The position numbers were made by a program, and so were the translations under genes. A stretch of 39,050 bases of DNA from Candidatus Phoenicimicrobium oleiphilum (GTDB taxonomy: Bacteria > Atribacterota > Phoenicimicrobiia > Phoenicimicrobiales > Phoenicimicrobiaceae): positions 1 through 39,050 of the forward strand of contig JBDIWJ010000012.1 of NCBI GenBank assembly GCA_039638295.1. The letters are read 5' to 3'. The notes under the pieces are model-generated. The model was not told the origin of the DNA and made no database searches. It worked only from the letters and a program-made list of their open reading frames with translations. This document shows positions 3,807-28,552 of the stretch, one piece after another. Numbering within the stretch: the first letter of the stretch is position 1; every line of letters starts with the position of its first letter.

Positions 3807-4570
3807 AATTTTTCTCCTCTCCTTTTACCCATAAGATTTAATTTAAATTTTCTGATAATATCGGGAGATATTATATTACCTTTTCCAAAATCAAAGAAGA
3901 TAAAACCAATCCTTTTTCCTTTTGAGTTTAATAAGTGTTGGTAAATAGGGAAAGATATAAAGATTAAAAAGGATAATAGCCATACTATAGATACAAGAGA
4001 GGGTATATCTTTAGGCCAGAATGGGATTATAATTAGAGAGGATACAGTAGAAATGGGGAAAGCCCAGGCAACAGCCATTTCAATGCGCTGAGATAAGGGA
4101 AACTCAACTTCTCGCATTGATGAGATTTTCTGAAAATTATTATTTATGAAGAGGGGAATATCTTTAGCATATATCGGACCCCAGATTATTTCCCACCCAG
4201 TCTTGTTTTTAATAGTTTTAGCTTCGATGCCACTAGCGGCAAGCTGGGGTAATATTACTTTTCTATGGGATACAAGTTTTTCGATACCACTGGTCTTGAG
4301 GGCAGAAATAACACTGTGATTGGTAAAATGTCCTCCGGTAGCAGCACACCAGACATTGATGCCCTTGCTATTAGCTATGAGTAGGTAACAATTTATTCCT
4401 ATTAATGCTTTTTTTACTCTTTCTACAGTTAGATGGAAATTACAGGTTAAAAAAACAGGAGAGTTTTGATTTGGGTTTCCGATTTTAATTAAACTCGGTT
4501 TGCAAGGAAAAGGAAACATTCTTAATAAAGTTTCTATAATATTAATAATAATATAATTAAATATATTCAT
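3803..4570 (-). CDS. HgcA-like (CdhD-family corrinoid-binding) membrane protein; HgcA paralog, probably internally deleted
   Basis: IGNPNQNSPVFLTCNFHLT, GINVWCAATGG (4334-4357), ILPQLAASG, WGPIYAKDIP; only about 2 TM helices; no ferredoxin motif. Confidence 0.85.
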   Translation of the reverse strand: MNIFNYIIINIIETLLRMFPFPCKPSLIKIGNPNQNSPVFLTCNFHLTVERVKKALIGINCYLLIANSKGINVWCAATGGHFTNHSVISALKTSGIEKLVSHRKVILPQLAASGIEAKTIKNKTGWEIIWGPIYAKDIPLFINNNFQKISSMREVEFPLSQRIEMAVAWAFPISTVSSLIIIPFWPKDIPSLVSIVWLLSFLIFISFPIYQHLLNSKGKRIGFIFFDFGKGNIISPDIIRKFKLNLMGKRRGEKL

Positions 4571-24447: not shown

Positions 24448-25539
24448 TTACAGTATCTGATAAGGTGACTCCATTTTTTTGCTTTTAATCAAAATATTTT
24501 GGGGAGTTCCAAATTCTATTAATTGAGTATAAAGAGATTCAATAAAGAATTTTTCTGTATCAAAATGTTCTATGTCCAGAATATTTAATCCTAATTCTTT
24601 CGCTCGAAGGGCACTATGATAAGTAATATCTCCAGTAATGTATAAGTCAACATCAAGATTACTAACTTGTTCTAAAAGAGAACCTCCTCCTCCGGCGCAA
24701 AGAGCAACTTTCTTTATTTTCCGGTTGTGAGATTTAATAAGTCTTACATATCTTGCCTGGAGTTTTTCTCTTACCCAGCAAGAGAATTCAGTTAATTCTA
24801 ATTGGTTATTTATTTCACCCCACAGACCAATTCCGGAAGATGGTCTGGTCAAAAGTTCATATACATCATAGGCGGGCTCTTCATAGGGGTGAGCATTTTT
24901 CATAGCTTGTATAACTGACTCTAAATCTCTTTCAGCTACTACAGTTTCAATTTTTATCTCCTGAACTTCTTCTCTTTTTCCTATTTCCCCGATGAAAGGA
25001 TGAGTTCCTTGTAGGGGTTTAAAAGTACCTTTTCCGGCAATATGGAAAGATGTTTCAGTGTATTTGCCAATTTTTCCTGCTCCTGCTTCAAAGATTGCCT
25101 GGCTTACTCTATCTGCATATTGCATAGGTACATATACGGCAAATTTGAAAATTTTTTCTGGGCTTCTTTTTAGGGGAGCAATTTTCTTTATTCCTAATAA
25201 ATTCCCTACATAGTCATTTAATCCCTTTTCCGCCAGGTCATAATTAGTGTGCATAGCGAGAAGATATGTTTTATTAATTATAGCTCTAAAAAGCAACGGA
25301 TTTTTCTGTTTGGTAATCTGCTTTAAGGGAGATAAAATGAGGGGGTGATGGACAATTATTAAATTAGCCTTATTTTCTATAGCTTCATCTAAGACCTCGT
25401 GAGTCACATCTAAAGATATTAAAGCTGTTGTGATTGGGACATCGAGGTTGGCAAATTGGATACCACTATTATCAAAGCTTTCCTGTAAGGAAAAAGGGGC
25501 AATATTGTCTAAGGTATTTAAAATTTCTTTTATTTTCAT
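24448..25539 (-). CDS. Nif3-like dinuclear metal-centre protein (YqfO type, with PII-like insertion)
   Basis: AP.SLQESFDNSG, HHP, HTNYD, AGAGKIG.Y, HPYEEPAYD, ITGD..YH, HF.TE. Confidence 0.92.
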   Translation of the reverse strand: MKIKEILNTLDNIAPFSLQESFDNSGIQFANLDVPITTALISLDVTHEVLDEAIENKANLIIVHHPLILSPLKQITKQKNPLLFRAIINKTYLLAMHTNYDLAEKGLNDYVGNLLGIKKIAPLKRSPEKIFKFAVYVPMQYADRVSQAIFEAGAGKIGKYTETSFHIAGKGTFKPLQGTHPFIGEIGKREEVQEIKIETVVAERDLESVIQAMKNAHPYEEPAYDVYELLTRPSSGIGLWGEINNQLELTEFSCWVREKLQARYVRLIKSHNRKIKKVALCAGGGGSLLEQVSNLDVDLYITGDITYHSALRAKELGLNILDIEHFDTEKFFIESLYTQLIEFGTPQNILIKSKKMESPYQIL

Positions 25540-25741
25540 TTAAAATCTTACACCTCATCAACCCCTGCAAAGGAAAATGGGGGAGAAGAGATATTGCTCC
25601 TTTCTATGTTTAAGATTTAATTTTAAGTAGCTGGTTACCCAATTAATTAAGTTAAATGTTTAATTACATAATTTTTCATCTATCTTTTATTTCTTGTATA
25701 TTATAATATGGTTATTACCCAAAAAGTAAATAAATAGTAAT

Positions 25742-25765
25742 GTAGGGGCACGATGCATCGTGCCC
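25742..25765 (+). repeat. GTAG-type REP
   Basis: GTAGGGGCACGATGCATCGTGCCC. Confidence 0.8.
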
Positions 25766-25894
25766 ACGGTAAATATTTTTTGGATTTTTAGGTTATAATC
25801 ATAATATATAATAACACTTTTTACATATTTTTTCTTGTTTTTTTTCAAAGAAAACTACCCGCAAAGTGGAGACACAGACTTTTTAGGTAAAAAG

Positions 25895-26140
25895 TTGACA
25901 AAAATTTGAAAATGAGTAAACTATACAGTAGAAAACATATATAAAAATGGCTGGCCATTTTACTAAAAAGAGATGCTAAAAACAATCAATTAAGTCCTCT
26001 GAAAACAGATTGTTTATGAGGGATCTCTTGTGTTTTAATAATGTTATCGTTAAAGAGGTTAGAATCAATATTTTGTTTCTACCTCCTAAAGAAACGTTAT
26101 TGGACTTAAGAGAAATAATAACGAAAAGGAGGTAGAAAGC
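25895..26140 (+). promoter_or_regulatory. Promoter and structured 5' leader with anti-Shine-Dalgarno helix
   Basis: TTGACA (25895), 16-bp spacer, TAAACT; TTTCTACCTCCT (26076-26087) is the exact complement of AGGAGGTAGAAA (26127-26138). Confidence 0.6.
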
Positions 26141-26401
26141 ATGCAAGGTAGTAAATTATATGTTGGAAATCTTAAGTATTCTGTAACCAATGATGAATTG
26201 AAAGAATTATTTTCCAGTTACGGTGAAGTTAAGAGTGTCAACATCATTGAAGGCAAAGGTTTTGGGTTTGTAGAAATGTCTTCTCCAGAAGAAGCCGAAA
26301 AAGTTAAAGATGCTTTAAATAATACCGATTTCGTAGGTCGTCCTTTAAAGATTGATGAAGCCCGTCCGCCAAGACCAAGAAATGAATATAAAAGATACTA
26401 A
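26141..26401 (+). CDS. RRM (RNP-1) RNA-binding protein
   Basis: KLYVGNL (RNP2), KGFGFVEM (RNP1), GRPLKIDEAR. Confidence 0.95.
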   Translation: MQGSKLYVGNLKYSVTNDELKELFSSYGEVKSVNIIEGKGFGFVEMSSPEEAEKVKDALNNTDFVGRPLKIDEARPPRPRNEYKRY

Positions 26402-26527
26402 AAAATAATTGTCAAAAATTAGTTAAATTTAGATTTAGCAAAATTCTATTATATTGAAAAATAGGCTAGCCATTTTTTGAGATATATAAAATATATGTAA
26501 ATGTAAATAAAACAAAATAGAATATAG

Positions 26528-26618
26528 AGATATAGGGGAGCTTATTAAAGCTGAGAGTGTTTTTAATAAACAGACCCTTAGAACCTGATCTGGGTAATGC
26601 CAGCGTAGGGAATTATAG
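26528..26618 (+). promoter_or_regulatory. TPP riboswitch
   Basis: GGGGAGC...GCTGAGA...GACCC-TTAGAACCTGATCTGGGTAATGCCAGCGTAGGGAA upstream of the thiamine genes. Confidence 0.95.
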
Positions 26619-26633
26619 CAGAGGTTTTATTTT

Positions 26634-26680
26634 AAACCATAGATTTTGATTAAAAAGATCAGGTCTATGGTTTTTTTTAT
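26634..26680 (+). terminator. Riboswitch expression-platform intrinsic terminator
   Basis: AAACCATAGATTTTGAT/ATCAGGTCTATGGTTT stem followed by a T8 tract. Confidence 0.8.
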
Positions 26681-26759
26681 TTGGTAGGTCAATCTATTTA
26701 TTTTTTTCGAAGTTAATAAAAGAAAAATTTTAAAATTAAAAGGGTTAAGGAGACATTAG

Positions 26760-27260
26760 ATGGAGGAAAAATCTGTCTTAAGAAAAATTGTTTTAACTGG
26801 ATTATTTGCGGCTATGGCGGTTATTTTGTCTGGAATCCATTTTCCAGTTGGTCCCACTAAGTGTTTCCCCTTTCAACATGCAATAAATGCTGTCAGTGGG
26901 GTATTGCTGGGGTCCTGGTATGCTTCTATTGCCGCAACTGTTGCTGGAGTAATTAGAAATATGTTGGGGACTGGAACTATCTTCGCTTTTCCTGGTGGCA
27001 TACCTGGGGCATTGGTAGTGGGGATAGTCCACCGTTTTTGGTCTAAAGATTATGCTGCTTTTGTTGAACCCTTAGGCACTGGTCCAATAGGAGCATCAAT
27101 AAGTGCTTATGTTGTTGCCCCCTGGATTGGGAAGAGTATGCCTTTTCTTACTTTCCAAATAGCATTCTTAGTCAGTTCTATACCTGGTTGTATATTAGGA
27201 TTTTTGGTTTTGCGAATTTTACGTAAAACGGAAGTTTTTAAATTTGCTGAGATAAAATAA
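26760..27260 (+). CDS. thiW: ECF S component ThiW (thiazole precursor uptake)
   Basis: FPFQHAIN...GVLLG.WY, R..LGTGTIFAFPG...GA, EPLGTG.IG. Confidence 0.9.
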   Translation: MEEKSVLRKIVLTGLFAAMAVILSGIHFPVGPTKCFPFQHAINAVSGVLLGSWYASIAATVAGVIRNMLGTGTIFAFPGGIPGALVVGIVHRFWSKDYAAFVEPLGTGPIGASISAYVVAPWIGKSMPFLTFQIAFLVSSIPGCILGFLVLRILRKTEVFKFAEIK

Positions 27261-27277
27261 TAAAAATAAGGAGAAAT

Positions 27278-28552
27278 ATGGTGATGAACGGAATAAAACC
27301 TATTAAAGAAGAAGAGAGAAATCTTGCCGGAATAGATTTTCTACTTTTATGGAGTGGAGCAGCCATTTCTCTGGCTGAGATTTTAGCAGGAGGAATTCTT
27401 GTTCCCCTTGGTTTGATGGTTGGAATTTTAGCAATTTTGTTGGGGCATATAATTGGGAATACCCCCTTTGCATTAGGGGGAATAATAGGCAGTGAACAGG
27501 GCATCCCCTCTATGGTCTCTGTTCGCCCATCTTTTGGCAATAGAGGTTCTTATTTGCCTGCTTTTTTAAACGTGGTTCAACTTATAGGTTGGACCGCAGT
27601 AATGCTTATTATTTGTGCGAAATCTGCGGAAGTAATAAGTCAAAAACTTTTTGGGTATTCTAATTTTCAATTATGGGTAATTATGGCAGGTGCGATTACT
27701 ACTCTGTGGGCTTTCTTTGGCCATAAAACCTGGAAATGGCTGCACAGAATATCAGTATCTGCCTTGCTTTTATTATGTGTGGTAATGACTTATGTGGTTT
27801 TTAAGGAATACGGTTTTGCAGAATTAGCTCGAATCCCTTCAACCTCTGATTTATCTTTTGCTATTGGATTAGATATTGTAATTGCTATGCCCATTTCCTG
27901 GCTACCTTTAGTGGCTGATTATTCCAGATTTGCTAAAAGCACTCCTTCCAGCTTCTGGGGTACCTGGTTGGGATATTTTGTAGTGAGTTCCTGGATGTAT
28001 TTTATAGGTCTTTCTGCTGCCCTGGCAACTGGTAGCGCTGATCCTATTCCTATGCTTTTAAATTTAGGTTTGGGGTTTGCAGCCCTGATAATAGTTCTAT
28101 TTTCTACTTTTACTACTACTTTTTTGGATATTTATTCTACTGCTGTTTCTGCCCTGAATGTTTTTCCCCAGTTAGGAGAGAAAAGAGGAGTTGTTATAGG
28201 GGGTATCTTAGGTACTTTAGTAGCCCTGGTATTCCCCATAGAACAGTATGAAAACTTTTTACTCTTTATTGGAGCGATGTTCTGCCCTCTATTTGGAATT
28301 GTTTTGGCTGATTATTTTATCCTTCGGAAGAGAAGATATTTTGTGGAAGATATCTACAAAAAGGGGAGATATTGGTATTCACAAGGGGTGAATGTAATTG
28401 CGGTTATCTGCTGGATAATTGGGGTGGTATTATATCAACAATGTATAAAATATGGTTTATGGATAGGCTCATCGATACCGAGTATGGTGGTAGCCGGTGT
28501 CTTATATTTGATAATTATGAAAAAAAGCAAAAAGGAGATTATTAATGAGTAA
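27278..28552 (+). CDS. cytX: Putative hydroxymethylpyrimidine transporter (NCS1 family)
   Basis: W.GAAIS.AEI, LGHIIG, LNVVQLIGWTAVM, AMPISWLPLVADYSRF, STFTTTFLD.YS; TPP regulon context. Confidence 0.85.
   Translation: MVMNGIKPIKEEERNLAGIDFLLLWSGAAISLAEILAGGILVPLGLMVGILAILLGHIIGNTPFALGGIIGSEQGIPSMVSVRPSFGNRGSYLPAFLNVVQLIGWTAVMLIICAKSAEVISQKLFGYSNFQLWVIMAGAITTLWAFFGHKTWKWLHRISVSALLLLCVVMTYVVFKEYGFAELARIPSTSDLSFAIGLDIVIAMPISWLPLVADYSRFAKSTPSSFWGTWLGYFVVSSWMYFIGLSAALATGSADPIPMLLNLGLGFAALIIVLFSTFTTTFLDIYSTAVSALNVFPQLGEKRGVVIGGILGTLVALVFPIEQYENFLLFIGAMFCPLFGIVLADYFILRKRRYFVEDIYKKGRYWYSQGVNVIAVICWIIGVVLYQQCIKYGLWIGSSIPSMVVAGVLYLIIMKKSKKEIINE

Follow-up and report, generated by a model that had tools for sequence, protein, structure and literature searches.

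A conserved, uncatalogued leader RNA family of RRM-protein mRNAs in Atribacterota and other bacteria, a predicted translational switch

The RRM locus and its predicted transcript

The window (the whole stretch of 39,050 nucleotides that was analysed, from Candidatus Phoenicimicrobium oleiphilum) carries a gene for a small RRM protein on its forward strand, preceded by a putative structured leader. The features discussed below are the following:

25895-25922, + strand: predicted sigma-70 promoter (-35 box TTGACA at 25895-25900, 16-nt spacer, -10 box at 25917-25922)
25943-25956, + strand: 5' arm of the end helix P0, pairing with 26464-26477 over 14 bp with one G-U and holding AUGGCUGG
25968-26029, + strand: 5' hairpin P1 of the minimum-energy fold (25968-25977 with 26020-26029 and 25980-25987 with 26008-26015)
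26024-26048, + strand: 5' strand of the long helix P_L, 21 bp with 26091-26113 (RNAalifold)
26055-26064, + strand: Shine-Dalgarno (SD) look-alike, or anti-anti-SD, the 5' strand of P_i; it pairs with the anti-SD strand and forms the distal helix of the long hairpin
26076-26087, + strand: anti-SD strand, with either 26055-26064 or the SD region 26127-26138 as its partner
26091-26113, + strand: 3' strand of P_L, in a 21-bp long-range helix with 26024-26048
26117-26123, + strand: 3' half of an inner stem with 26095-26101, a family-specific reinforcement of the SD-closed fold
26127-26143, + strand: SD region and start codon (AGGAGG at 26127-26132, flank to 26138, ATG at 26141-26143)
26141-26401, + strand: RRM-protein gene, 86 aa (Pfam RRM_1, E = 1.3e-21)
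26464-26477, + strand: 3' arm of P0 in the 3' UTR, 63 nt past the stop codon and running into a U tract

The promoter matched the consensus at 10 of 12 positions. Because of this near-consensus promoter, transcription is predicted to start near 25930, giving a leader of about 210 nt. A leader of this length had been claimed in an earlier note on this DNA and was borne out by the homologs, in which the promoter box and the 5'-most leader motif are both conserved. The TTGACA box lay 200-250 nt 5' of the ATG in most homologous loci (at 178 nt in one) and was absent at eight, mostly ones clipped by contig ends. The 5'-most motif, at about -198, was kept among homologs.

A divergent NIF3-family gene (24448-25539, - strand) lies 600 nt from the RRM gene. 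In the middle of the intergenic region between them is a perfect palindromic G+C-rich hairpin with T-rich flanks on both strands (25745-25765), with no gene on either side for a terminator to serve. Downstream of the RRM gene, a TPP riboswitch (26524-26628, 75.5 bits, Rfam) is followed by genes for ThiW (26760-27260) and a cytosine/purine-family permease (27278-28552). The same order of RRM gene and TPP riboswitch was also found in a close relative (L130).

A leader family at RRM genes

A BLAST comparison with 41 related genomes recovered the leader and gene from every one of the 24 genomes in the window's family, with 81-89% identity across the entire 521 nt. Leader and gene formed two paralog classes, and the window genome has a member of both, one on contig C12 and the other on C16. 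The sister family kept the architecture of the leader but not its sequence.

We searched further with a covariance model (R1) made from 44 leaders over 128 positions, with the long helix as its sole structure. It gave 94 matches in 50 of the 86 Atribacterota genomes (28/29 in family f1, 21/22 in f2 and 0/34 in f3-f7), all of which, compared by eye, sit at RRM_1 genes. The tally of RRM_1 genes themselves was the same (f1 28/29, f2 21/22, f3-f7 0/34). Ten RRM genes were left unmatched by R1, and with filters off two of these showed weak, divergent leaders (E = 0.12-0.18). A third class of RRM paralogs had no leader detectable by R1 even with filters off, including the window genome's copy on contig C31. 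That copy (G000:C31:10857-11051; L041, 62.9 bits) belongs to a divergent class that was likewise leaderless in two other genomes. On another contig (G035:C112), two equal-scoring copies of leader and RRM gene were found in inverted orientation about 2 kb apart (2406-2537, +; 4394-4525, -).

Outside Atribacterota, 80 loci with close RRM relatives, from a species-representative collection, were searched with R1. Matches of 31-72 bits lay directly 5' of RRM genes in MAGs whose labels name at least seven other phyla, these labels being record titles of bins that may be mislabelled. They read Thermodesulfobacteriota, Nitrospinota, Aerophobetes, Humimicrobiia/Actinomycetes, Zixibacteriota, Neomarinimicrobiota, Desulfurellaceae and several unnamed bacteria. 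The leader was matched in 5 of 31 genomes of the phylum of the Aerophobetes hit and in 2 of 81 of that of the Zixibacteriota hit. R1 found no match at the RRM homologs of methanogens, Chloroflexi, WOR-3 or Desantisbacteria. The RRM proteins of three methanogen MAGs (L169, L171 and L175, labelled Methanoculleus, Methanogenium and Methanobacteriota) share about 75% identity with that of the window, and their genes lack the leader; these genes are either inter-domain transfers or mis-binned contigs. At one locus labelled Clostridia (L158) the leader begins at the anti-SD: its 3' half alone is present, fused to unrelated upstream sequence, as if a natural truncation had taken away P_L and the SD look-alike.

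When positions 25000-27500 were scanned with Rfam 15, only the TPP riboswitch passed, and no family matched the leader at E <= 10 save noise, the best of which was a plant miRNA model on the minus strand (E = 0.13). The leaders of 11 homologous loci were likewise without an Rfam match at E <= 0.1, and a literature search with most subscription journals outside its scope found no description of the motif. The element had been called undescribed, and it was without a match in Rfam 15 or an account in the literature searched. On these comparisons the leader is a real RNA family, uncatalogued in Rfam 15, its class of mechanism familiar and its construction unusual.

Conserved pairings of the leader

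The predicted helix P_L, absent from the earlier note, is the main conserved helix of the leader. Among 95 distinct leaders, in an alignment that was fitted to the model and favours the structure, 86.9% of its cells were paired, compared with 40-59% when the partner was slid, and 12 of the 21 pairs had changed on both sides (e.g. GC:49/AU:40 and AU:48/GC:40). None of 500 shuffles reached the observed pairing or covariation score, but the count of doubly changed pairs was unexceptional alone (63/500 shuffles). Since the leader sequences are related, shuffle controls overstate the support for helices.

The anti-SD strand (26076-26087) matches the reverse complement of 26127-26138 exactly, forming 12 bp that cover the AGGAGG. 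This 12-mer has exactly two occurrences in the window, one per strand. With one mismatch allowed, a 12-mer match over the whole window is not rare (at least two matches in 11 of 100 shuffles), and the evidence that argues against chance pairing is comparative. Over 83 distinct Atribacterota leaders, the leader's own anti-SD:SD duplex scored -15.25 kcal/mol and cross-partner duplexes -12.65 kcal/mol, with no permutation out of 5000 as good, and the result held after collapse to 73 unique combinations. The flanks of the SD were analysed by anchoring on the core motifs, which dropped the 4 of 83 leaders without a motif and left 79. The first flank pair was formed in 70 of these (AU 36, GU 17, CG 7, UA 8, UG 2), and the contiguous flank helix averaged 3.7 bp, against 2.1 bp for permuted partners (0/2000 as good). 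In one paralog class, inspected by eye, the same flank position was C:G in seven leaders, U:A in seven and U-G in one, with no mismatch.

The competing partner of the anti-SD strand, 26055-26064, pairs with 26077-26085 in 4+5 bp with one bulged U (26059). The GAG:CUC core of this helix, P_i, was 95.6% paired when 30 leaders, drawn from Atribacterota and from other phyla, were aligned with MAFFT, and all three of its pairs had changed on both sides (GC:25/AU:5 and others). For the sister family, an independent RNAalifold prediction gave P_i as well. By eye, the three strands had shifted jointly in three distant leaders, from GAGG/CCUC/GGAGG to GAAG or GGAG/CUUC/GGAAG. The core of the earlier idea, that one pyrimidine-rich strand would have two alternative partners, thus holds on the comparative evidence. 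The 12-bp pairing that it described is exact and covaries with the SD flanks, the rival pairing with 26055-26064 is present, and over about 100 homologous leaders both were kept and covarying.

The same data bear on whether the long hairpin could be the aptamer of a small-molecule riboswitch, with a ligand deciding the release of the anti-SD. The architecture has two states and some unpaired stretches are highly conserved, such as the A-rich joints beside P_i, both as expected of a riboswitch. Against it, length and sequence vary freely between look-alike and anti-SD, no multi-helix junction is present, and three mutually complementary strands account for what is conserved. An RRM protein is the only gene ever found downstream; we found neither a conserved ligand pocket nor genes of one metabolic theme. 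We consider a ligand-dependent aptamer very improbable. Of the thermosensor, autoregulatory element or riboswitch that the earlier note had offered, the riboswitch is ranked below the other two as the least likely.

Every pairing of the earlier note exists in the sequence where the note placed it; those other than the two anti-SD pairings were kept less widely or not at all. The hairpin P1 is present in the minimum-energy fold, with a 3' strand that shares positions with the outer part of P_L. Its two helices were 97.7% and 94.1% paired in family f1 and nearly invariant there, so that covariation neither supports nor refutes it. Leaders from outside Atribacterota conserve a second SD-like purine block, of GGGGGUGAU or GGAGGUGGU type, in their 5' domain some 150 nt ahead of the ATG, at the place taken in the window by the 5' strand of P1.

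The proposed inner stem exists in the window as exact 7-bp complements (26095-26101 and 26117-26123), and it excludes, and competes with, the conserved core of P_L. The stem is lineage-specific: a full 7-bp partner was found in 21 of 91 leaders, all from family f1, and the 3' half mutates without compensation. The 5' half is conserved because it is part of P_L. A further pairing that the earlier note had set in competition with P1, 25990-25997 with 26102-26109, is likewise present as exact 8-bp complements and was rejected as a conserved helix, being 68% paired with 498 of 500 shuffles as high.

We also considered a translated upstream ORF, whose leader peptide would couple to or attenuate RRM translation. 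In the window an ORF of 41 codons (26010-26135) does end within the SD, as such a peptide would have it. Among 97 leaders, closed ORFs of at least 30 codons occurred in only 10, in differing frames, no frame was stop-free in more than 16, and indels were not multiples of three. ORFs this scarce and frame-inconsistent led us to reject a conserved leader peptide, and translational coupling through this ORF is scarcely credible.

A helix between the ends of the transcript

The arms of P0 are predicted to close the whole RRM mRNA, 5' to 3'. The P0 duplex was computed at -22.4 kcal/mol, against -5.2 and -3.4 kcal/mol for the two local hairpins, and at 10, 25 and 37 C the full transcript had all 14 pairs in its minimum-energy fold. 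The AUGGCUGG motif in the 5' arm is conserved across phyla. A local hairpin at 25944-25960 was tried and rejected as a conserved structure (51.6% paired), the sequence there being kept because it is the P0 arm.

Across loci, P0 was scored by ungapped helix, since the long flanks of this AT-rich DNA gave too much noise with duplexfold. Of the window-type (type I) loci with both flanks, 26 of 43 scored above the 99th percentile of unrelated background; a score of at least 30 was reached by 1 of 24 sister-type (type II) loci. Loci scoring at least 30 held 27 distinct complementary arm pairs, with three to five pair types at several positions, in an arm alignment that was fitted, being anchored on the best helix. 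In one paralog class the arms extend to 19-27 bp. Seventeen of the 43 window-type loci had no P0; among them is the second copy in the window genome, where an ordinary terminator takes its place. Where present, P0 is a covarying helix that links the 5' end of the transcript with its 3' UTR.

Complementary arms might also be the terminal repeats of a small mobile cassette made up of leader and RRM gene, with no role in the RNA. This would explain the patchy distribution across phyla, and similarity between the two paralog classes does begin at the 5' arm and stop at the stop codon. The arms differ between lineages and yet stay complementary (the 27 distinct pairs), which argues for selection on pairing. 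In distant homologs, moreover, the consensus promoter lies just outside the 5' arm, and a non-systematic look revealed no transposase or target duplication. We consider a mobile cassette very improbable.

Folding energetics

The fold of 25925-26160 was more stable than expected (z = -3.18; 0/200 shuffles as stable). In the window copy the minimum was the SD-closed fold (P1, anti-SD:SD helix and inner stem), with the two leader folds about 2-4 kcal/mol apart. As ensembles, the open fold (P_L and P_i) lay above the closed one by 2.2 kcal/mol at 37 C and by 0.8 kcal/mol at 0 C, so that the open state gains 1.4 kcal/mol over this range. A heuristic estimate of the refolding barrier over RT gave about 28 at 50 C, 34-39 at 25-37 C and 70 at 4 C, peaking in the cold but rising unevenly. 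In most of the non-Atribacterota homologs that were folded, the open long hairpin was by eye the minimum-energy fold, and the closed state may thus be minor there.

The probability that the SD is unpaired was bimodal over 83 leaders. Its mean was 0.309, compared with 0.252 when the upstream part was shuffled, and the native value was below the shuffled control in only 48 of 83; in this model the accessibility of the SD is on average no lower than in controls. Folding at several temperatures did not give the opening in the cold that a simple equilibrium thermometer would show. Only 9 of 83 leaders had a more accessible SD at 10 C than at 37 C, cooling mostly closed the SD, and the equilibrium thermometer is not supported.

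The earlier note had described two exclusive folds. This stands for P_i against the SD pairing. P_L and the anti-SD:SD helix could instead coexist as a pseudoknot, which nested-fold programs cannot score, and "exclusive" therefore applies strictly only to P_i versus SD.

These results have to be weighed against the reading that the element is mainly a device for mRNA stability or processing, in which the long hairpin and P0 protect the ends or offer RNase III sites and the SD complementarity is incidental to a purine:pyrimidine helix and hardly affects initiation. The covarying 14-27 bp of P0 fit this well, as do the RNase III gene encoded in the window genome, the many homologs whose minimum-energy fold leaves the SD free and a mean SD accessibility no lower than in shuffled controls. 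In addition, the accessible part of one source describes cspA as controlled largely by mRNA stability (PMC9450479). Incidental complementarity would not yield SD flanks that co-evolve with the anti-SD strand, however, and P0 is missing from type II leaders (1/24 at a score of at least 30) and from 17 of 43 type I loci, all of which retain the trio of SD, anti-SD and look-alike. We regard a device mainly for stability or processing as unlikely.

RRM genes in place of cold-shock-domain genes

A role as substitutes for cold-shock proteins and Hfq-like regulators is emerging for bacterial RRM proteins. In Atribacterota, cold-shock-domain (CSD) genes were found in 0/29 genomes of f1, 1/22 of f2 and 31/34 of f3-f7, and the lone f2 match was weak (40.6 bits on a short contig). 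RRM and CSD genes were thus almost perfectly exclusive among the 86 genomes. The window genome, which is 91% complete, had no CSD match. This exclusivity within one phylum fits a role of RRM proteins as substitutes for cold-shock proteins in Atribacterota, a role that the accessible part of a preprint describes for Bacteroides (PMC13370968).

A predicted translational switch

A long 5' UTR, a gene for an RNA chaperone and two exclusive folds at the initiation region, features of a cspA-type leader, were recovered here in silico and by comparison. The predicted switch architecture is well supported by the covariation described above. Our preferred reading is a translational switch like that of cspA or of autoregulatory leaders, for which cold, the RRM protein or both are the predicted candidate triggers. 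We hold it somewhat more probable than its negation that the leader of the RRM mRNA, as a conserved and uncatalogued family, acts as a translational switch in which 26076-26087 pairs either with the SD look-alike, so that the ribosome site stays free, or with the SD, so that it is closed. In terms of the folding model, the alternative folds likely hide or expose the ribosome-binding site and so tune the output of RRM protein.

We suggest the following course of events for such a switch. The long hairpin (P_L capped by P_i) would form first during transcription and occupy the anti-SD, leaving the SD free on emergence. Strand exchange to the SD-closed fold, the predicted minimum of the window copy, would then shut translation. 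This exchange may be slow in the cold, or may be promoted by free RRM protein binding to the purine-rich look-alike or to adjacent single strands. The balance of open and closed states would likely be set by temperature-dependent refolding kinetics, by RRM protein on its own leader, or by both. Acting on its own leader, the protein would exert negative feedback, as reported for cspA and the Bacteroides rbp genes. P0 probably sets the lifetime of the mRNA, either protecting both ends or offering an RNase III site.

A broader proposal is possible, and we offer it tentatively, as one we would sooner doubt than defend. The whole RRM mRNA may be a self-contained sensor of the RNA-folding state (cold, or a shortage of free RRM chaperone) that sets its own translation and lifetime through the P0 clamp and the exchange between look-alike, anti-SD and SD. 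Gene and device would then have moved as a unit between at least eight phyla and taken over the role of CSD proteins in JS1-type Atribacterota.

The leader family would fill a gap in Rfam. Of wider interest are the clean replacement of CSD by RRM genes inside one phylum, and a bacterial mRNA whose 5' and 3' ends would be joined by a conserved helix. To our knowledge, bacterial mRNAs joined end to end in this way are rarely documented outside hok-type toxins and rRNA precursors.

Comparison with known systems

In hok mRNA, studied by the Gerdes laboratory, pairing of the 5' and 3' ends reportedly gives fold-back inhibition, and rRNA precursors form RNase III processing stalks. As in both, a predicted helix between the 5' and 3' parts of the RRM mRNA encloses the rest of the transcript. 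Unlike in hok, there is no toxin or antisense RNA, and unlike in either system P0 is absent from part of the leader family.

Autogenous protein-binding leaders, such as the ribosomal-protein leaders and that of T4 gene 32, provide a second parallel, in that the leader of an RNA-binding protein's own gene carries a structured element beside the SD. Feedback is the natural logic of such leaders. For the RRM leader, binding of the RRM protein is a proposal from gene linkage only.

A candidate cis-regulatory RNA 5' of RRM-protein genes has also been proposed by comparative genomics, the Chlorobi-RRM motif (Rfam RF01697; listed among the candidates in the accessible part of PMC2864571). It was unmatched in the window (E <= 10) and in the 11 homologous loci (E <= 0.1), and is a different RNA family from a different phylum.

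The E. coli cspA mRNA is a thermosensor with two mutually exclusive folds and a stability component (Giuliodori et al. 2010, as summarised in the available part of PMC9450479). The RRM leader resembles it in being a long 5' UTR before the gene for a small chaperone that binds single-stranded RNA, in its two predicted exclusive folds, which would open or mask the initiation region, and, if P0 acts as suggested, in the part played by mRNA stability. In keeping with this parallel, the RRM genes occupy lineages without CSD genes. There is no similarity in sequence or model (the Rfam cspA model was unmatched at E <= 10), and equilibrium folding of the RRM leaders does not reproduce a temperature response. 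Unlike that of cspA, the RRM leader is built as a three-strand exchange inside a long closing helix, to which the 5'-3' end helix is added.

Bacteroides rbpA, rbpB and rbpC encode proteins of the same family (RRM-1). From what is accessible of the 2026 preprint, these genes also have long 5' UTRs (122-155 nt), their proteins are cold-induced, and they are feedback-regulated, redundantly and partly through the UTR (PMC13370968). The same part of the preprint defines no structure or motif in those UTRs and leaves open whether they are thermosensors, whereas the leader family described here has helices defined by covariation. With dozens of natural variants, and with SD decoy, anti-SD and SD each open to mutation and compensation, it offers a concrete object on which the thermosensor question of the rbp UTRs can be tested.
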